Positions 23,649-37,591 of a stretch of 64,000 nt of DNA are shown here, piece after piece (position 1 is the first letter of the stretch; each line of letters starts with the position of its first letter). The translations under genes and the position numbers were made by a program. Origin of the DNA: Candidatus Bathyarchaeota archaeon (GTDB taxonomy: Archaea > Thermoproteota > Bathyarchaeia > Bathyarchaeales > Bathycorpusculaceae); assembly GCA_963768425.1 (NCBI GenBank), contig CAVYHV010000009.1, positions 96,001-160,000 on the forward strand. The letters are read 5' to 3'. The notes beneath the pieces were generated by a model. The model did not search any database, was not told where the DNA came from, and was given only the letters and a program-made list of their open reading frames with translations.

Positions 23649-24573
23649 TTAAAATTTGTGGATGAACGGCATAAGCTGGTTTGCGTTTTCGAATTTTTGC
23701 GAAAGAGGAAACTGCAAGTACGCTCCGTACCTGTTAAAGTAAGGTGCCCCTTTCCTTGAAAACAGGGTTAAGACCTTGCCGCCGTGATTGATTTTGAAGC
23801 CCGTGCTGCTTGCCTCATGACCCCTTATCAGAATTTTTGCTTTCAACCTTTCAAGCACCTGTTCCGTGACGTCTTTGCCGAAGAGTTTTCCTGCGCCTCT
23901 CGGCGAAAAAGAAACCCCGCGCATCCCTTCCGCAGGGTCGCTCCACAGCAAATCCTCCAGCAACCCCTCGTTGTGACCCTCTTGGGCTTGACGCGATGTC
24001 TTGTAGGTGTCTGATTTCTGGGGAGACGCCGCCGTGAACCATCAAAAAACGTTCCTCAACGTACACGGCGTTGTACAGGCAAGCCCACAAAGCGCGGGTT
24101 TTTTTATAGACCTGCAACGAGTCTTCGCCGAACTTGGCTTGGAGTCGCTCGGGCAAATCATGCGGAGAAGCCATCAAATCCTCGGGTCCCTCATGGTTTC
24201 CCCTAATTAAAATAACTTGTTTTGGGAAGGCAAGCTTCAACCTAAGAATCAAGTAGTAGACTTCGGCTGGTTTTTCTCCTCTGTCGCCGTAGTCCCCAAG
24301 AAAAATCAAAGTTGCGTCACTTCGTTTTCTCCATTTTTTGCACGAATTGGCTTTCTTGAAGTATCAAGGAGAGGCTTTCGAGGTCGCCGTGCAAGTCTCC
24401 TACGACCAAGAGCTTCCCCAGTCGGCTCAAGTGTGACAAGGCGATCTTCTATTTTTTAGATTGCCATTTTGCCCGTTTTCCTTCTGCAACAGAAGCGTGG
24501 CTTCGTCAAGCGTCTCCATGAATGATTTGCTTTGAATACTTTGGGCTTCTTTGACTATTGTAGATAAATCCAA
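23649..24573 (-). CDS. PPP-family Ser/Thr protein phosphatase, multiple frameshifts
   Basis: GDLHG, GDYGDRG, RGNHE, VHGG, LLWSDP, RGHE motifs spread over shifting frames. Confidence 0.85.
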
Positions 24574-26808: not shown

Positions 26809-27576
26809 TTATTTTTCTCTGAACAGTGACATGTTCGGGTAGATTTCTATTCCGGTTTTGTCGATTGTGTAGGGAACAAGGTTTGTGTTTACGCTAACAC
26901 CTCTCATTTTTTCCACTTGTAGCCCTCTAGTCGTGGTTCCGCTTGAAAACAGAGTCTGCATCATAATTACTCCGTGAACTAAGAATTCTTCATCAGATAT
27001 CTTTCGTTCAAGCCCAAGTTGACCCAATTCTGTAGTAACGAGAACTGTTGCACCGCAATCGGAAAGTGCCTCTATGAGATCTACGCTGGCGGTTCTTCTT
27101 TCTATTGGATCCAAAAACCTGTAGAAAAGCGAAGCAAGCGTATCCAAAACCACACGTTTAGCGTTAACCTTCTTAATAATCTCCTGTATGTCTTCTACTA
27201 ATCTGTCGACCTGCAGTTCTTTTCCTCGAAGACTGCCAGATTCTTCTTTCATCATTTTTTCCTTTAGCATCGCAACTCTGGAAAGTCTTGTCGCGTCGAG
27301 GAAACCGAATTTTCCTTCTTGCTCAGCTTTATTGAAATCCCAACCGAATTTCGCCATTTCAGAAAAGAAATGATTCTTACCCTCGTCTAAGCTGACGAAA
27401 ACGCCGTTTTCGCCATATTCGGCAATGCCCTTATATAAGAATTGGGAAGCAAAAATTGTTTTTCCAGCTCCAGGTCCCCCAATAACTAATATCACTCTAT
27501 TCTGTGGGAAGCCGCCGCTAATTAATTCATTCAAACCTTCTATTCCAGTGGGAACAGTCTTTACAAAGTCTGACAT
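26809..27576 (-). CDS. Single-domain KaiC-like RecA-superfamily ATPase
   Basis: TGIEGL, GGPGAGKT, VVLD, TTE, VEKMRG. Confidence 0.92.
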   Translation of the reverse strand: MSDFVKTVPTGIEGLNELISGGFPQNRVILVIGGPGAGKTIFASQFLYKGIAEYGENGVFVSLDEGKNHFFSEMAKFGWDFNKAEQEGKFGFLDATRLSRVAMLKEKMMKEESGSLRGKELQVDRLVEDIQEIIKKVNAKRVVLDTLASLFYRFLDPIERRTASVDLIEALSDCGATVLVTTELGQLGLERKISDEEFLVHGVIMMQTLFSSGTTTRGLQVEKMRGVSVNTNLVPYTIDKTGIEIYPNMSLFREK

Positions 27577-27906: not shown

Positions 27907-28902
27907 CTAAGTTAAGCCTAGGGAAGCTTTCATTACTTCTACGTCTAGATTGCCTGCTGTGAATGTTTTACCCGTTTTCATATTGTTGACGGCGACGACA
28001 GCGGGAGCAAATATGTTTGTGTCAATCTTGTAGAAGTCGAAGCCTGCTTCTTTGTAGATGTCTAGGAATCGGGGATTTTTTTGGGCGAGTCTTTTTGCTT
28101 CTTGCAACATTGCAGAAGCTGACGAGGGAGCTTGCTGAACTATGCTTTGCAGTTTTTGTTCGTCATCGTAATTTACTATGTAGTTCGTTACTCCTCCGTA
28201 GAGGATAGCATCATTTGTCCTTCCCATGGCTTCGCCTGCATCAGGATGCAACGGGACAATCGGAGCATAACCCCACGCATGCTTTACAACCAATGGGTCT
28301 AAACCGCACCTTTCAAGTTTATGAAGCCCCGTTTCAACTATTCGTCCTGAAACTTGAGTTGCACCAGCCACGCTAGTCGTAGAAAACATTACCAAATACA
28401 GGTTTTTAGCGGGAACCTTGCATTTATCGGCTATAAATTGAATAACTGCTTCTGGCGGCTTCGTTTGGGTTTCTAAAACAAGCACTGCAGTATCGGATTC
28501 TTCCTTAAATTGAAGTTTTTCGTAGAGATCTTTGGGTTTAAGGGCCAAAGCTCTTGCTGGACCAGATGCGATGGCTGAATATCCTTCACCTTTTACTTGC
28601 CAGCCTGCAAATTGGGAAGCCAAGAGAGACAGCGCTGGGTAATCTGTCTTTATGAAAACTGAGGGCAAAACAATATTTCCGTATTGAATTGCAGTCACAT
28701 TGGCGGTGCCATAACCTGCTAGGCAGATTTCAGTTACCATTTCGCCCGCAAGAAAACCGCCTTCAGCTTCAATGCCAGCGTCAATCAAGGTTGCGCCAGA
28801 TTCAGATTTTTCGACGTTAACGCCATATTTATCTGCTTCATCACAAAACTTATTCACCAAACGCAGCGCTGATTTATTTAGAGTAATCTTTGGCATTGTC
28901 AT
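27907..28902 (-). CDS. mch: Methenyltetrahydromethanopterin cyclohydrolase
   Basis: SQFAGW, SGPARAL, QVSGRIVETG, GRTNDAILYGG, FYKID.. FAPA; start set at MTMPK. Confidence 0.96.
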   Translation of the reverse strand: MTMPKITLNKSALRLVNKFCDEADKYGVNVEKSESGATLIDAGIEAEGGFLAGEMVTEICLAGYGTANVTAIQYGNIVLPSVFIKTDYPALSLLASQFAGWQVKGEGYSAIASGPARALALKPKDLYEKLQFKEESDTAVLVLETQTKPPEAVIQFIADKCKVPAKNLYLVMFSTTSVAGATQVSGRIVETGLHKLERCGLDPLVVKHAWGYAPIVPLHPDAGEAMGRTNDAILYGGVTNYIVNYDDEQKLQSIVQQAPSSASAMLQEAKRLAQKNPRFLDIYKEAGFDFYKIDTNIFAPAVVAVNNMKTGKTFTAGNLDVEVMKASLGLT

Positions 28903-28980
28903 TTGCTTCCCTAAAGGTACTGGAATAAGCAAATATATAGCCACGGATAAGTCTTTTCCCCAAACACGCAAAAAAGAATC

Positions 28981-29701: not shown

Positions 29702-31981
29702 CTAAATTTCAAGGTTCTCCCTTGTTAGCATAAATTCAGTGTCAGTATATCTTTGGTTATACAGCTTTCGAATGCGCAGAATTTTTTCGGGTCCCTTCTC
29801 GGCGTCTTTTTCGGTTATCCTGATCTCTCCTTCGAATAGACCGGAAATTGCTTGCACTTCTTCCTGCGGATGCATCTGAGGGTTAATAACTGCCAATGTT
29901 GTGAAGCCTTTTGCCTTGAGTTCCGGAAGGAGCCCGCTCAGCCATTTTCTGGTCATTACGGCGTGGTGTTGCAGCAAAACGTCAGATATGATTTCAATGC
30001 AGGCCCTTTTTGGTCCGCTTTGCGAGTTGTCGAACATGCGGAATGATTTGATTAAGGCAATATCGATATCCGTGAGATTTTCTATCCCCTTCATCTTGAA
30101 AACATTGGGCAAATTCTTGACAATGATGTCAGCTCGGGGATTACAAATAAACAGGAAAAGAGAAGACGGAAATTTCTCGGCCAAAGCTGCTGTATTGCCC
30201 ACTTCTGTCGTAATGTAAAATGTTATTTGCCCATTAACCAAGCCTGCCTGGATGAACCTTTTAATCAATTCTTCTTTCTCGTCGCAGGATGGACTTGTCA
30301 ATATGATTGTGTAGGTTTCAGGTATTCCGCCCAATAGAAGGTTATCCAGACCGTTGAACCCCGTGGTGACGCGCCCAGGTAGCGCGGCTTCCAGAAAACT
30401 GAACGCGATCGGCTTAGGATTGTGGGTCATTTGATGCCCTGTTTCGTCGACGCAGATGATTTTTGGGCTGATCCTGACATTGCCTTTTATAAACGATTTA
30501 AAGGTTATTTTGATTTCGTCAGTCTTAAGAGGTTCTATTTTCCTTCCCTTCAGAGCGAGAGTAGTGCCCTCAACAGAGCATCCGTCGGGCTTGGCAACGA
30601 TTAGAAAACCAGCTTGGAGAAGGTTTTCAATTTTGGTCAGCAGGACTGGTTCTTTCCCCACGTTCACTATTTGAATTTCGAGGTTTACGTCCTCTCCTGC
30701 TTTAGTTTCATTTTCTTTCTGGATGAGTTTAGCTTGAATTTCTGCGTGTTCGAATCTTTCTAATCCCACTGCTTTTTCTTCGTTCGGCTCTATCGAAGAG
30801 AAGCTTGCCGTCGAAGATGTTATAGCTGGTGCATGGAAAAGTTCGCCGAGGGATAATGCCAATTCTTTGTCGTCTCTGACTTTCCTTAAAAGACGCTGAA
30901 CTTGCTCGTTTTTCTCGGTGTGCCCTGCTTTTGCAAAACATTCGGCTGAAATTTGCAGCACTTTTTCAGCCATCAGATAAAACTTTGCCTCTTTTGAAGG
31001 ATCTTTTTCTCGTTTAGCGCTGTCCATGTAGACGTAAGCGTCGAAAAGGCGTTGCGTGCCTTTTGCGTAATCAGAAGCTGATTCGAAGCCAGCTCGAAGA
31101 TAGTAGCTTGCGGCAGAACCAATGTGTTTGGCGGTTTCCTCGTACATGCTCGCATTTCTCGTGATTTCAAATTCTATTCCAGTTTCCAATGCTTTACAGA
31201 AGCTACTGTGTCCCAACGCAAGCAGACCTGCTGATTCCTTAGTAGCATGTTCATTTGCAAGAGTAAAGAGATCTGCAGCCTCTTCATAGATTATTGGGGA
31301 GTTTTTGGCTTCTGCTAATGTCATTTTTTGCCATGCTTGGCAGAGGTAAACGAGTGGTCTAACTTCTTTTCCCGTTTGCTCTGGGTCAACTTGTAATATT
31401 TTTTTGAAGATTTCAGCTGCAGATCCATATTTTTGGGAACTGCCACCGTGGTCACCTTGTCTGTCGAGAATTTTCGCTTCTTCTAAAGAGATTCTTCCAT
31501 TGCTGTATTCAACCCTGATTTTTGAAGCCTCAACTAGTGCTTTGACAAGTTTTTGTTCGTCCGTCTTGTCGATTCTGCCGAGTTCAACCAGAAGAACACG
31601 TTCCGAGTCTTGCAAAAATCTGATAGCTTTCTCGAAGGTTGCTACTGACTCTTTGCAGCTTTCTTTTCTGCTTAAGTCTTCTGCTTGTTCAAGAAGTGAC
31701 CATGCATAAAAGTTTGAAGATAAGTAGTTCCAGAATTTTGATTGTTTCAAAACGCTCGACGCTTTTTCGTAATGGTTCATAGCATCAATGTATCTTTCGC
31801 CATTGTGTTCAAGTTTTGCCGTTTCAATCTCGCTCCATGCCTTCATGTAGGATGCATAGTCGAGGAAGAAGTCGCTGAACTGACTGATTTTCTGAGCGGC
31901 TGCTTTGTATCCAGCGAACCCTTTTTCAAAATTTTCCGCAGCTTTATTATACTCGCCGAGAAGGTCGAGGTTGCTCGTCAA
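29702..31981 (-). CDS. TPR/SNAP-like repeats + Ig-like domain + degenerate KaiC-like ATPase domain
   Basis: Helical repeats, NVGKEP Ig-like module, then VTTGFNGLDNLLLGGIP with Walker A replaced by TSPSCDEKE. Confidence 0.8.
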   Translation of the reverse strand: MTSNLDLLGEYNKAAENFEKGFAGYKAAAQKISQFSDFFLDYASYMKAWSEIETAKLEHNGERYIDAMNHYEKASSVLKQSKFWNYLSSNFYAWSLLEQAEDLSRKESCKESVATFEKAIRFLQDSERVLLVELGRIDKTDEQKLVKALVEASKIRVEYSNGRISLEEAKILDRQGDHGGSSQKYGSAAEIFKKILQVDPEQTGKEVRPLVYLCQAWQKMTLAEAKNSPIIYEEAADLFTLANEHATKESAGLLALGHSSFCKALETGIEFEITRNASMYEETAKHIGSAASYYLRAGFESASDYAKGTQRLFDAYVYMDSAKREKDPSKEAKFYLMAEKVLQISAECFAKAGHTEKNEQVQRLLRKVRDDKELALSLGELFHAPAITSSTASFSSIEPNEEKAVGLERFEHAEIQAKLIQKENETKAGEDVNLEIQIVNVGKEPVLLTKIENLLQAGFLIVAKPDGCSVEGTTLALKGRKIEPLKTDEIKITFKSFIKGNVRISPKIICVDETGHQMTHNPKPIAFSFLEAALPGRVTTGFNGLDNLLLGGIPETYTIILTSPSCDEKEELIKRFIQAGLVNGQITFYITTEVGNTAALAEKFPSSLFLFICNPRADIIVKNLPNVFKMKGIENLTDIDIALIKSFRMFDNSQSGPKRACIEIISDVLLQHHAVMTRKWLSGLLPELKAKGFTTLAVINPQMHPQEEVQAISGLFEGEIRITEKDAEKGPEKILRIRKLYNQRYTDTEFMLTRENLEI

Positions 31982-32122: not shown

Positions 32123-32518
32123 TTGGGAGATCAAAAGACGATAGTAACTTACTCCAAACCTTATGGAATTGTTAGAGGCATGCTTAAAAAATGGAAGAAG
32201 ATCGGCGTAGTTTCTTGTAATTCTTGTGCGAGGGCATGTGAAACTGGAGGGAAGGAGAAAATGGATGAACTTGCGGCGAGGCTAAAACAGGATGGCTTTG
32301 AAGTGGTTGATACGGAACTGCTTCCGATGGCATGCAATATTGATGCGGCGAAAAGAACTGACTACAAGGGCGATATGCTGGTGGTTTTGGCTTGTGATTC
32401 AGGTGTGTGCACTCTTCAGTCGTTATTTCCATCCAAAATTGTTGTTCCTGCATTAGACACGATCGGCATAGGGGCAAGGGATGCTCAGGGCAACATATTC
32501 GTGATGAGGAAATTCTAA
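32123..32518 (+). CDS. MetV-like (MTHFR small-subunit-related) Cys-rich protein, short form
   Basis: IGVVSCNSCARACETGG, MAC, LACDSGV, VPALDT pattern. Confidence 0.6.
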   Translation: MGDQKTIVTYSKPYGIVRGMLKKWKKIGVVSCNSCARACETGGKEKMDELAARLKQDGFEVVDTELLPMACNIDAAKRTDYKGDMLVVLACDSGVCTLQSLFPSKIVVPALDTIGIGARDAQGNIFVMRKF

Positions 32519-33465: not shown

Positions 33466-34413
33466 TTACGGCCTGTAACCGCGCAGAACACAGAGTGCCA
33501 AGGCGGCAGCCGTCAAGTCTGCGGTGGTTCCAGGGTTGCATTTGTTCTGATTAGAGCGAAGTCTACGGTCGAAGCTTCTTAGCCTGGTTTTGCCCCGTGC
33601 CGTTTCTAGTCCGCCGAGATCCAGAACTGCTTTTGCACCGACCGAAACTTCTAACGCTTTTTCTTTCCCCATCTTACGCGCGATGAAAGTATCGGGGTGC
33701 ATGGATAGAATTTTTAGGAAAGTGTGAACGACAGCTGTGTTCAAAGGCTTATTTTTCAGCTGCTCCGACAAATACGGGTAAGCTAAATCAAAAGCGACCG
33801 AGTAGTTGTTGACCCATTCAGCGCAGATGTCGTCGTATGTCGACGCCAAACGGAAAACCTCAAACAGACTAACATTCTCCTTTAGCAGGCGCTCCTTTGA
33901 CTGCGGGTCCGTTACGTCAAGCTCAGGCGCCTTGTTCAAACCACTTGGATTGGCAATGTCCACCGCCTCGTAGAGGTGCACTGAATCCCAAGCCGTCGTT
34001 GCCTTAACTGTCCGGTCGATGTTTCTGCGCAAAATAGAAAAATCAAGCTGCAAATCTTCTCCTGTTGGAGTCATTCCCGCCGCAACAGCAATCGGCATAA
34101 ACAGCATTATAGTGCCGAGAATCGTGTTGCCGCCCCTCTGCCAATCGTTGACGTCTTTTGCGCAGGATTTTATGAGCTGTCCCAATTCAACTTTGTCGAT
34201 GTCCAGTCTGCCTTCTGCTACCTGTGTCCCTCGGTAGGCAGCTTCTTGTAAGCTCGGTCCTGCAGCGATGGCTGAAGCTAAAAAGTGCTGACAGGTAGTT
34301 CCCTCAAAGCTCGCCGCCAAGTTGATATTACCTGGTTTTTCTGCGCTGACTTCAAGCAGAATCGCCAATTGCAGGCTTTTTGATACATTTTGAACTTTAA
34401 CACTGTTATTCAA
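33466..34413 (-). CDS. citG: Archaeal CitG-family triphosphoribosyl-dephospho-CoA synthase-like protein
   Basis: LEVSAEKPGN, NTILG, PDTFIARK, NPGTTADL. Confidence 0.88.
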   Translation of the reverse strand: MNNSVKVQNVSKSLQLAILLEVSAEKPGNINLAASFEGTTCQHFLASAIAAGPSLQEAAYRGTQVAEGRLDIDKVELGQLIKSCAKDVNDWQRGGNTILGTIMLFMPIAVAAGMTPTGEDLQLDFSILRRNIDRTVKATTAWDSVHLYEAVDIANPSGLNKAPELDVTDPQSKERLLKENVSLFEVFRLASTYDDICAEWVNNYSVAFDLAYPYLSEQLKNKPLNTAVVHTFLKILSMHPDTFIARKMGKEKALEVSVGAKAVLDLGGLETARGKTRLRSFDRRLRSNQNKCNPGTTADLTAAALALCVLRGYRP

Positions 34414-34488
34414 GGGAATGCATCAACGATATTGGCGCAAAGAAGGTTTATTAAACTTATTAGAAAACTACAAGCTGTGGTTTGTTTG

Positions 34489-35505
34489 ATGGCACGTGAA
34501 GGCGATCTGATCAAAGCAAAAAGTGGCGTGGTTTTTGACGTTAAAGGCTTGGTTCACCCCATTGACAAAATAGTTGCTTTTCCGCGTTTCATCCCTTCTC
34601 CGCAAGGCACTCGGCAGGGCAAAGAAGGGACATATGGCAAAGTCTACAGCCTTGGCGACCGATTTAAGTACCTCCAGGAAAATCACCCAAACCTAATTGT
34701 CTTCGATCCAGTGTTTGGCGAGACGATGTGCGAAGTCCCAGTTGACCAAGTAGCTCAACATTATAAGCCTGAGGAAAAACTCTGGGCATTACGAACCTCC
34801 AAAGACCTTACCGTGTTGGAGAGTAAGGCACTGCAGCTGGCGGAAACCCTCAAGAAAGAAGCAGGAATTCCATGGAGCAACATCGGTATTTCGGGCTCAA
34901 TAATGGCTGGGTTAACAACCGAGAAGTCAGATATTGACCCTCTCGTTTATGGCGAAGAGAACTGTAGAAAAGCATACGCTGCTCTTAAGACACTTCTTGG
35001 GCTTGGGCAATTGGGTTTCAAGCCTTACAACATGGAGGAGTTGCAGGAGCTTTTCGATTTCCGTTCGAAGGATTCTCAGATGAGCTTCGAAGACTTCGTG
35101 TTGGTCGAAAGCCGCAAAGCATTCCAAGGCAAATTCATGGGCACCGACTACTTCATCCGCTTCGTGAAAGACTGGCGCGAAGCCACCGAGCAATACGGAG
35201 ACGTGTGCTACAAAAACAGCGGCTACACAAAAATAACCGCCAAAATAGCCAGCAATATTGACTCTCTTTTCACGCCCTGCACCTATAAGCTACAAGACAC
35301 GCAAATTGTTGAAGGACCCAAATTGGCACCAATAGTTGAGATTGTTTCTTTTCGCGGCAGATTCTGTGAACAAGCAGAAAACGGCGAGTTGGTTGAGGCT
35401 CAGGGAAAAGTTGAGTTGGTCACAGACAATAAAACGGGGAGCGAACACTACCGTTTAATCCTTGGAAACAAGCCGTCAGACTACATGGTTCTTTCTCGAG
35501 CTTAG
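34489..35505 (+). CDS. Pol-beta-superfamily nucleotidyltransferase (COG1665-like), paralog 1
   Basis: REGD, VKG..HP, GISGS...SDIDPLVYG, C-terminal VEAQGKVE. Confidence 0.8.
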   Translation: MAREGDLIKAKSGVVFDVKGLVHPIDKIVAFPRFIPSPQGTRQGKEGTYGKVYSLGDRFKYLQENHPNLIVFDPVFGETMCEVPVDQVAQHYKPEEKLWALRTSKDLTVLESKALQLAETLKKEAGIPWSNIGISGSIMAGLTTEKSDIDPLVYGEENCRKAYAALKTLLGLGQLGFKPYNMEELQELFDFRSKDSQMSFEDFVLVESRKAFQGKFMGTDYFIRFVKDWREATEQYGDVCYKNSGYTKITAKIASNIDSLFTPCTYKLQDTQIVEGPKLAPIVEIVSFRGRFCEQAENGELVEAQGKVELVTDNKTGSEHYRLILGNKPSDYMVLSRA

Positions 35506-36578
35506 TGCTGCACTTTGAGGACTTGTTCGTAGTAACGTGGGCAATAAGTCAAAGTGACCTGGTGGAACTGTTCAGTTGGCGACATAACTTCTTCAAGATT
35601 CCCTTCGACTATGACTTTTTCATCTTTTTTTGCCTGCTGGCGGAACTCCTCCATGAAAGAGAAAATTCTCTGCACCTCATAGGCTTCTTTTGGACCGCTG
35701 ATAACTTCTAGAGGTTCAATGCCATAGATCGATGGAATAAACGGCGCCTCGTCGTCGGCTGTTACGAGCGCTTTAAGTTTAACCCAGCCACGCCGTGTTA
35801 TGCACGTTCGCGGGTCGTATTCTGATTTGATTTCGCTCCACGCCTTCACAGGTTCAAACTCAGCCTTAATTGTTCGCCCACTTGCTTTGTCATCGTATAA
35901 CCCATAAATCTGCTTTCTACGTTGATGCCAAACGAAATCTGGTACTGCAAAGTTTTTGAAACGCCAATCTTTCCCATCCATAGCATGATCAGATTCGAAC
36001 TCGTTATGAAAACCTGACTGTGGATCATCGTACATGGCTTCAAGGGTTTTTCGCATGATGGCGTTCTCTTTTTTGCCGTAAACAATCAAGTCTATATCTG
36101 AGTAATTGGGATGATGAAACCCGTGCAGCATGGAGCCAAAGACACCGAAATTCTCTGTTTTTAACCCTGAATTGCTGAGCGATATCATGAGCACCCGCTC
36201 CATCGCTGCCAGCAACTCATCAGTCGGCTCCGTCTCAAGCAACTGCTGTAGTCGCTCCTCAGGTTTTCTTGCTTCCACAATGGCGCCATCCTTCACTCCG
36301 ACAAGATTCAGCCCCAGCATCTCATGGAAAACCTGGTACTGCGGATACTTTTTCATGACAAGTTTCATGCCTTCGTCATTGTAGAATTTAAAGTACAGCT
36401 GCCCTTTGCCTGTCCGCGGCGCTCTGGGGTCTTTGGACTCAAAAATCTTTGATGAAGCGTACTCGGCATCGCAGATGTAGGCGCCTGGCGGATGCGAGTA
36501 GCCGAAGACACGAAAGATCAAGCCCTCGGCGGTTTCTATGGCGTCGCGATCCCGCAGTCCTAGGCTATCACTGGCCAA
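35502..36578 (-). CDS. Pol-beta-superfamily nucleotidyltransferase (COG1665-like), paralog 2
   Basis: RDRD, VFGYSHP, GVFGS...[15 protein letters not shown]. Confidence 0.8.
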
Positions 36579-37591
36579 ATGAATTCTTCCTCTGACGTAG
36601 CGGTTCCGACAACAACTTGATAATAAACCTCGCTTGAAGATGTGGATTCGACCCGCTCAAGCTTGCCAGATACCCTGATAGTGCTGCCGCACTTTGCAAC
36701 GTTTCGATATAGTCCAATGTTCGAAACAACCTGCGAAGGTACCTTGTCTAATTCAAGTTCAGACTGGTCATCTAGGGGTTTGTAGCTTGAAATCCTATAA
36801 GCTGCGGGGCGATACATTGTTTCGGTGTCGTCGCTGACGACCGCTTCAAATCTCACTGGATCAAGCGGGACAAAGCGGTAAGCGCCATACTTTTCCTTGA
36901 TTTGTTCTGGTTTTTTTGTGGCATTGTACATGAAGATTTTTCCCTGGTACCTCCCTTGGAACTTTCTCGCGGCTTCAATGCGGTTGCCTACAATGTAGGT
37001 GAGTTTCCCAACGTTAACAAGCCTTGCAATTGCTTCCTCTACCATGCGGAAGTTTTCGGTTCCGTAGACGACGAAGTCAATGTCAGATTCGGGCGCGTGC
37101 ATCTGCAGGGCTATTGAACCGTGGATGCCCAGGTCGCAGAGGTTAACGCCGGATTCTTTGGAGACTAATTTTATGAGGTCAAGTGCCATTTGTTGCAGTT
37201 TATCCCGTTGCGGCAGGTTGGTAAGCCATACTAATCGGTCTTTGGGAACAAACACTCGCTCGATGCGATCCAACGGCGCTGTGATTAGTTCTTTGTTGCG
37301 AAAGGGGCAGAAGTAGATGTAGTCCGGAAAGTTTTTGCGAAAAGCCTCAATGAAAGTCTGGTAGTTCTTGGCCGTGTATAGTTTTTCTGCTCTGAACAGC
37401 TGATTACCGCTGAACTTCCAAGTGCGCTCCAGCATTTGCACATTGAAGAGTTCTTTTAACTGGGCTGGAATGTACTTTAAAAAAGCAAATACGCGGTCTT
37501 CCGGATGTTCATAGCCGAAAGTGTTAAGGATGAAGCCGTCTTTGGTCACAAAAGTGTCTCCATCCATAGGAACCCAAATATCTTCAGACAT
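36560..37591 (-). CDS. Pol-beta-superfamily nucleotidyltransferase (COG1665-like), paralog 3
   Basis: DGD, FGYEHP, GIHGS...[15 protein letters not shown]. Confidence 0.8.

Follow-up and report, generated by a model that had tools for sequence, protein, structure and literature searches.

Gene content and layout of the block

The window analysed here is a stretch of 64,000 nucleotides from contig CAVYHV010000009.1 of a Candidatus Bathyarchaeota genome (G000, a member of the Bathyarchaeia of 2.96 Mb, 91% complete). Its element of interest is a block of four genes, a CitG-like gene and three paralogous nucleotidyltransferase (NTase) genes, whose two families travel together and with methanopterin genes. 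A preliminary description of this DNA, made from its letters, had recognized a CitG-family gene divergent from NTase1, with NTase2 and NTase3 converging on the latter. The open reading frame (ORF) coordinates agree with that layout, and the block can be listed together with the nearby gene mch as follows.

33466-34413, minus strand: CitG-like gene, 315 aa, PF01874
34414-34488, no strand: intergenic spacer between the CitG-like gene and NTase1, 75 bp, divergent, A+T-rich, TTTATTAAA
34390-35505, plus strand: ORF of NTase1 (group N1), likely gene 34489-35505, from the paralogue alignment
35502-36578, minus strand: NTase2 (group N2), downstream of NTase3, from the paralogue alignment
36560-37591, minus strand: NTase3 (group N3), from the paralogue alignment
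27907-28971, minus strand: mch, encoding methenyl-tetrahydromethanopterin cyclohydrolase, PF02289 (E = 1.6e-107)

The likely start of NTase1 is the ATG at 34489, as indicated by alignment with relatives and by the sequence, and the spacer that this leaves would be the promoter region for the divergent pair. NTase1 and NTase2 are convergent, their 3' ends overlapping by 4 bases. On the minus strand, NTase3 runs 19 bases into the start of NTase2, which makes co-transcription of the two probable. The stretch TTTTAATTAT lies about 35 bases upstream of the NTase3 ATG. In one metatranscriptome run, 12 short contigs that are 90-99% alike fall on portions of each of the four genes; their source is relatives, carry-over of DNA is possible, and the uncovered parts carry no meaning. 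The mch gene, said earlier to lie within 6 kb, is 4.5 kb from the CitG-like gene, and Mch is a user of methanopterin-type cofactor.

The CitG-like protein

The CitG-like gene is single copy in G000, and its product matches PF01874 over profile positions 3-283 of 284 with E = 4.8e-66 and 223.7 bits against a cut-off of 27. It also matches PDB ID: 3h9p (E = 1.6e-15), and a BLASTP comparison with Escherichia coli CitG gives E = 1e-4 over 65 residues. The NCBIfam equivalog models for CitG and MdcB align to the C-terminal third of the protein alone, and all score under their cut-offs: 34 bits for TIGR03125 (cut-off 272.3), 35.1 for TIGR03132 (282.35), 48.7 for NF002315 (280), and 23.5 for NF007503 (477). 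Judged by these matches, the protein belongs to the ATP:dephospho-CoA triphosphoribosyl transferase family, though only distantly.

Family membership brings up the possibility of a CitG/CitX-like prosthetic-group system, in which a phosphoribosyl-dephospho-CoA-type group would be attached to some carrier protein, with the adjoining NTase perhaps standing in for CitX or MdcG. The earlier statement that no citDEF, mdc, or acyl carrier protein (ACP) gene is present extends from the window to the whole 91%-complete genome, where the ACP family PF06857 and the CitF family PF04223 have no match although both match in the E. coli control, and where a six-frame search with MdcG PF10620 gives no match at E ≤ 0.001, with the proviso that very weak matches may escape the HMMER filters. 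The distance from the equivalog cut-offs adds to this, the clustered neighbours of related loci show no recurrent, conserved small carrier gene, and the distribution described below tracks methanopterin markers, all of which leaves such a prosthetic-group system very improbable.

The NTase family

The 3 NTases, each of about 340 codons, share 24-27% pairwise identity. The preliminary description had them as diverged from one another with motifs in common and the DxD kept, and this holds. Common to all are an N-terminal D..G..G..HP segment, the motif G..GS-x10-SDID..VYG, and further positions in the C-terminal third. Against PF01909 they score 26.3 (NTase2), 19.2 (NTase3), and 17.3 bits (NTase1), so that NTase2 alone passes the cut-off of 21, and NCBIfam has no match for any of the three. 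A profile of the three paralogues gathers a family of 1426 representatives at 50% identity (E ≤ 0.001), whose conservation is far beyond chance. In an alignment of 99 sequences the invariant positions, in NTase2 numbering, are H29, G145, G148, S149, D161, D163, G168, G326, and E329; E249 is conserved in the family along with E329. PF01909 matches 94 of these 99 members and PF22600 matches 36 (E ≤ 1). Relatives of NTase2 are 94-73% identical among the matches listed, which number at least 120. By sequence, solved structures give no match for NTase2 and chance-level matches for the family profile (best E = 0.04), and the ESM Atlas returns the family's own unnamed clusters, or otherwise scores below 0.8.

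A FastTree tree was made with 131 sequences chosen from 190 eligible ORFs, comprising all loci from L039 up, eight closer loci, the window, and six proteins of other genomes, the remaining close Bathyarchaeia rows being left out. It contains 3 groups, N1 with 56 rows, N2 with 31, and N3 with 29, each with support 100, and the window NTases fall one into each. The 15 rows outside include second copies from Hadarchaeota, Asgard, and Methanomethylicia, and single copies from four complete Thermoproteota genomes. Loci of Hadarchaeota, Asgard, and Methanomethylicia are also in N1, as is an NTase (L091:7620-8402) that lies within a methanopterin cluster described below. N1 would accordingly be read as an old and widespread group, and N2 and N3 as further duplicates that are found almost only in Bathyarchaeia in this sampling. 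The Pol-beta-type signature G..GS...SDxD..YG is intact in 131 of 131 sequences across N1, N2, N3, and the rows outside, and hence no group looks inactive. Genomes have from 1 to 6 NTase matches.

Linkage with CitG and with methanopterin genes

To describe the neighbours of the family, loci were scanned with the three-paralogue alignment as query, taking one genome per species and keeping the best 80 of 512 relatives, a selection that leans towards Bathyarchaeia. At least 3 NTase ORFs are present in 54 of the 80 loci, and a CitG-like ORF is present in 60, with the nearest NTase within 200 bp in 34 and within 1500 bp in 56. The preliminary description had looked to linkage or co-occurrence of citG with these NTases in other genomes; both are found, the latter in 131 genomes as given below, and the observation that it reported is confirmed as real and conserved. 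An mch-like ORF is in 26 of the 80 loci. Further frequent neighbours are MobB, cdvA, cdvB, and cdvC.

In several genomes the NTases are found inside clusters of methanopterin genes, and this position is the strongest evidence for what they do. In a genome of the window's order (G112, locus L114), about 10 kb of DNA holds two NTases, CitG, DUF447, an MptE-like gene, a DmrX-like flavoprotein, DUF1464, PTPS, RFAP synthase, and a DHPS-like gene (PterinBD-DUF4346), with DUF447, CitG, and the second NTase forming a near-overlapping co-directional run. The cluster that contributes to group N1 (locus L091 of G235, another Thermoproteota genome) runs from Fae through NTase-DUF447-DUF1464 to DmrX-like, DHPS-like, RFAP synthase, and MptE genes. 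Two Asgard genomes (G334 and G375, loci L106 and L108) have a tight operon of RFAP synthase, DUF1464, DmrX-like, DHPS-like, MptA, NTase, and NTase, with CitG 3-6 kb off on the other strand. Two genes lie between the NTase pair and CitG in both Asgard genomes (L106:10150-12336, L108:10737-13285), one with an HTH and a TiaS TCKD kinase-like domain and the other unassigned with 350-415 codons; these could be additional genes of the pathway, or regulators.

In the complete genome G113 (L093), four genes overlap in the order DUF1464, NTase, CitG, and metallophosphoesterase, and in the complete genome G067 (L094) NTase and CitG are adjacent with the same ORF spacing. The NTase of the four-gene operon is 97% identical to its nearest recorded protein, a 'nucleotidyltransferase' of Sulfolobus acidocaldarius. 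In complete Thermoproteota genomes the gene after NTase or CitG encodes a small calcineurin-like metallophosphoesterase (L093:8159-8632, L095:9074-9688), for which dephosphorylation in this pathway is a candidate role. A metallophosphoesterase of 152 aa is encoded in the window at 23851-24309. DUF1464, considered as a general partner of the NTases, was rejected as such, being in 77 of 301 Thermoproteota genomes and in none of the 16 other sampled members of the window's family, and adjoining RFAP synthase rather than NTase.

A further link to pterins is by fusion. In protein P0181, of 505 aa, HPPK (PF01288, E = 3e-40, residues 8-134) is followed by a full NTase module (167-502) with its motif intact. 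The fusion is one protein, present on two contigs; a metagenome scan with it returned two HPPK relatives with no NTase near, and a scan with NTase1 as query returned no fused forms of at least 593 residues, which is weak evidence. In an ORF of 769 aa (L112:1850-4159, genome G151), a full NTase module is fused with a domain of peptidase M20, a family that includes enzymes removing terminal glutamate from folates.

In G000 itself, PTPS, MptA, and MptE genes lie about 55 kb upstream of the block together with fragmentary RFAP synthase and DUF1464 genes. This pterin cluster of G000 (G000:C9:74650-78336, about 18-21 kb before the window start, loci L085-L088, L099, and L101-L103) includes 2 RFAP-synthase-like genes and a DUF1464 gene that are split or have in-frame TGA stops. 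The broken genes could reflect errors of assembly, or a copy that was gained recently and is decaying.

Co-occurrence across genomes

For co-occurrence we draw 301 Thermoproteota genomes evenly, counting NTase and CitG at E ≤ 1e-10 and RFAP synthase and Mch at E ≤ 1e-15; the resulting tables, in which related genomes are not independent, describe a pattern and are no proof. NTase is found in 145 genomes, CitG in 135, RFAP synthase in 110, and Mch in 78. Both NTase and CitG are in 131 genomes, NTase only in 14, CitG only in 4, and neither in 152. When NTase is set against the presence of either methanopterin marker (RFAP synthase or Mch), both are in 141 genomes, NTase only in 4, markers only in 11, and neither in 145, and NTase is found in 104 of the 110 genomes that have RFAP synthase. 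There are whole families of Thermoproteota that have none of NTase, CitG, RFAP synthase, and Mch (0 of 43, 0 of 25, 0 of 20, and 0 of 17 genomes).

The same association appears among 101 Asgard genomes, where NTase is in 67, CitG in 79, and RFAP synthase in 43; both NTase and CitG are in 62, NTase only in 5, and CitG only in 17. All 43 of the RFAP-synthase genomes have NTase, and RFAP synthase is in 0 of the 17 that are CitG-only. The pattern is weaker in 61 Hadarchaeota genomes (NTase 9, CitG 16, both 7, NTase only 2, CitG only 9).

These distributions bear on whether the NTases might be RNA or tRNA nucleotidyltransferases or modification enzymes that are near C1 (one-carbon) genes by chance. 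The best Pfam matches of the family are to generic or RNA-type NTase domains, as counted above for PF01909 and PF22600, and the TiaS TCKD-domain gene stands between the NTase pair and CitG in the two Asgard loci. Yet no RNA-processing genes recur as neighbours, and the linkage, the co-occurrence, and the HPPK fusion point instead to a small-molecule pterin pathway. Moreover, 145 of the 156 Thermoproteota genomes that are without NTase are also without methanopterin markers, which would be odd for a general RNA function, and we regard an RNA role as highly improbable.

A reading closer to methanopterin is salvage or remodelling, in which the CitG-like enzyme and the NTases would reconstruct or replace the tail of an imported methanopterin-type precursor. 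Of the 131 genomes that have both NTase and CitG, 34 are without RFAP synthase at E ≤ 1e-15, and 32 of those 34 have Mch. Also, 34 of the 80 loci contain an ORF for an ECF-type S-component-like membrane protein (PF07155, E = 1.5e-7), in many cases immediately upstream of NTase1, one Asgard locus included. Loci that bear on this point are L039, L056, L059, L061, L066-L068, L075, and L077. The missing synthase and the ECF-like neighbour are a hint of uptake and completion of a cofactor precursor, but the NTases stand among de novo genes in G112, G235, and the two Asgard genomes, G000 has its RFAP synthase, MptA, MptE, and PTPS genes as described, no gene of the ECF-like cluster adjoins the block in the window, and RFAP synthase may be overlooked in divergent or incomplete genomes. 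We consider salvage unlikely as the function of the block.

Named control genomes add a view across better-known organisms. CitG matches in E. coli, Methanocaldococcus jannaschii, Haloferax volcanii, S. acidocaldarius, and Methanosarcina acetivorans; RFAP synthase and DUF447 match in exactly the four archaea with CitG, MfnB in the two methanogens only, and DUF1464 in S. acidocaldarius only. In H. volcanii the matches are thus CitG, an RFAP-synthase-like gene, and DUF447. According to a review, methanopterin-specific enzymes are absent from haloarchaea and the RFAP-synthase assignment there is doubted (PMC8305020), and the trio may make something else in that organism.

The MfnB result is informative for the possibility that another C1 cofactor is tailored, either methanofuran or the molybdopterin dinucleotide of formylmethanofuran dehydrogenase. 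The CitG-like gene comes directly after fwdD, fwdB, fwdA, and fwdC in many loci of Bathyarchaeia, at least two fwd-like ORFs are in 28 of the 80 loci, and MobB is a neighbour in some. However, a search for MfnB (PF04476) gave no match in 4 of 5 complete genomes carrying NTase, CitG, and RFAP synthase, and a role in methanofuran synthesis is for that reason disfavoured. The controls run the same way, with CitG, DUF447, and RFAP synthase extending to S. acidocaldarius and H. volcanii where MfnB does not. The operon partners elsewhere are pterin and RFAP genes, and altogether the tailoring of methanofuran or molybdopterin seems quite improbable.

A proposed role in the methanopterin tail

We conclude, with a probability of about 0.6, that the four genes make or complete a methanopterin-type pterin cofactor and do not form a citrate-lyase-like prosthetic-group system. 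The argument is from the linkage, the co-occurrence in two phyla, the NTases within methanopterin operons, and the HPPK-NTase fusion. Of the 2 interpretations in the preliminary description, the tailoring of a C1 carrier is supported by these same findings, whereas the phosphoribosyl or nucleotidyl modification of a protein finds no support, with no match to a carrier or lyase gene in the genome and none recurring in the neighbourhoods examined.

At its end, the side chain of methanopterin carries ribitol, an alpha-linked ribose 5-phosphate, and a 2-hydroxyglutarate bound through a phosphodiester. PMC8141765 names the phosphate and the alpha-hydroxyglutaric acid moiety. For the assembly of this tail we infer a CitG/CitX-like mechanism. 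The CitG-like enzyme would take ATP as ribosyl donor with release of adenine, and would transfer the alpha-linked 5-triphosphoribosyl group to a hydroxyl of the intermediate, for which the ribitol 5-OH in the aminophenyl-ribitol part is the likeliest candidate. Such a transfer would create the alpha-glycosidic link and leave a triphosphate, which the NTase could treat as its 'NTP', with the hydroxyl of the tail acid attacking the alpha-phosphate. The acid would be (S)-2-hydroxyglutarate in classical methanopterin. Pyrophosphate would leave, giving a phosphodiester, in the way that CitX and MdcG act on the serine of a carrier protein. NTase1, NTase2, and NTase3 might form a mixed oligomer, or might serve different acceptors or tail variants.

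In its full form, the proposal is that the CitG-like protein and the NTases are the missing enzymes for the alpha-ribosyl 5-phosphate and the phosphodiester-linked acid in Thermoproteota and Asgard, by way of an ATP-derived triphosphoribosyl group, with the paralogue number reflecting hetero-oligomers or lineage-specific tails. We offer this tentatively, as a possibility on the short side of even odds.

Several points weigh against assigning the genes to methanopterin, or against this chemistry for them. By hhalign, the 99-sequence NTase profile aligns to E. coli CitX with a probability of 0.8% over 22 columns, and CitX and MdcG are not among the 25 most-matched of the 45 Pfam families found for the 99 NTase members, so the homology that the profile comparison suggested in the preliminary description might bring out went undetected. 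CitG occurs without NTase in 17 of 101 Asgard, 9 of 61 Hadarchaeota, and 4 of 301 Thermoproteota genomes, and just 9 of the 61 Hadarchaeota have an NTase at all. The 34 of 131 genomes with NTase and CitG and without RFAP synthase (32 of the 34 having Mch) fit salvage or another role as well as they fit de novo synthesis. The co-occurrence counts also overstate the evidence, because genomes of one lineage are not independent. As to the chemistry, we infer the acceptor, the donor, and the sequence of the steps, and White's work with cell extracts reportedly pointed to phosphoribosyl pyrophosphate, not ATP, as the ribose-phosphate donor. A single tail step leaves three to five active NTase paralogues unaccounted for. 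Classical methanogens make the hydroxyglutarate tail and have CitG; the NTase survey covers Thermoproteota, Asgard, and Hadarchaeota, and if the NTases were absent from classical methanogens they could not be general hydroxyglutarate transferases.

Methanogenesis, the archaeal Wood-Ljungdahl pathway, and methylotrophy all use methanopterin-type cofactors as carriers of one-carbon units. Should the proposal be true, there would be undescribed methanopterin variants in Bathyarchaeia and Asgard archaea, CitG/CitX-type chemistry would be extended from protein prosthetic groups to a free cofactor, and the NTase family would be a genomic marker of methanopterin-type metabolism in uncultured Bathyarchaeia and Asgard. 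One carrier of the genes, S. acidocaldarius, is genetically tractable.

Other genes of the window

Between mch and the CitG-like gene, and on the far side of mch, the window has two KaiC-like ATPase genes (29702-31981 and 26809-27576), one of which has 759 codons with a long N-terminal extension; they are not kept as neighbours in related loci. A 'MetV-like' gene had been proposed at 32123-32518, and that ORF matches 0 Pfam families at E ≤ 1, which leaves the label unconfirmed. Directly past NTase3 the G+C content goes from about 0.45-0.47 to 0.36-0.40 (window 38000-64000), and this part opens with glycosyltransferase, polysaccharide pyruvyl transferase, DUF1616, and RmlD-like genes. It looks like a surface-glycan island.

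Comparison with known systems

Citrate lyase, with CitG and CitX, and malonate decarboxylase, with MdcB and MdcG, follow a two-gene prosthetic-group logic. In the chemistry of CitG and CitX, ribosyl is transferred from ATP with loss of adenine, and the alpha-phosphate is then attacked with loss of pyrophosphate. The window resembles these systems in that a CitG-family gene adjoins a transferase gene, as in E. coli K-12, where citG and citX are adjacent and overlapping, and in that the same two-step chemistry is predicted. It differs from citrate lyase and malonate decarboxylase in that its genome has no match to a carrier protein or lyase, and in that the partners of its genes elsewhere are pterin cofactor genes. 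The NTases also differ from CitX and MdcG in forming a family apart, whose members have about 340 residues and additional regions at both termini. Since homology to either was undetected, the likeness is one of predicted chemistry and not of family.

A second comparison is to the 'archaeal-like' C1 gene islands of methylotrophs, with which the window shares a CitG-like gene near mch. Mutants in the bacterial CitG-like gene reportedly lose the cofactor. In the methanotroph Methylomonas sp. DH-1, the genes for mch, alpha-L-glutamate ligase, and triphosphoribosyl-dephospho-CoA synthase are consecutive (PMC11533326), a bacterial parallel that counts in favour of the methanopterin reading. The difference is that the cofactor of those bacteria is dephospho-H4MPT, which is without the phosphate and the alpha-hydroxyglutarate (PMC8141765). 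From the absence of these tail parts it is predicted that bacteria with dephospho-H4MPT would keep the CitG-like gene and lack the NTase.

The third comparison is to the known methanopterin genes themselves. In the passages of text searched, no paper was found that assigns the CitG-like or NTase genes (PMC8305020, PMC3087415, PMC6193120, PMC8141765, and PMC5020050 were included). The window genes resemble RFAP synthase, MptA, MptE, the DHPS-like protein of the MJ0301 type, and DmrX in their common operons and phyletic distribution. The reactions of those enzymes yield the pterin and the aminophenyl-ribose core, or reduce the pterin, and they account for neither the second ribose phosphate nor the addition of the hydroxy acid. 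To our knowledge, the enzymes for these late side-chain steps have never been assigned. For them, the cluster supplies named candidate genes and a concrete two-step chemistry.

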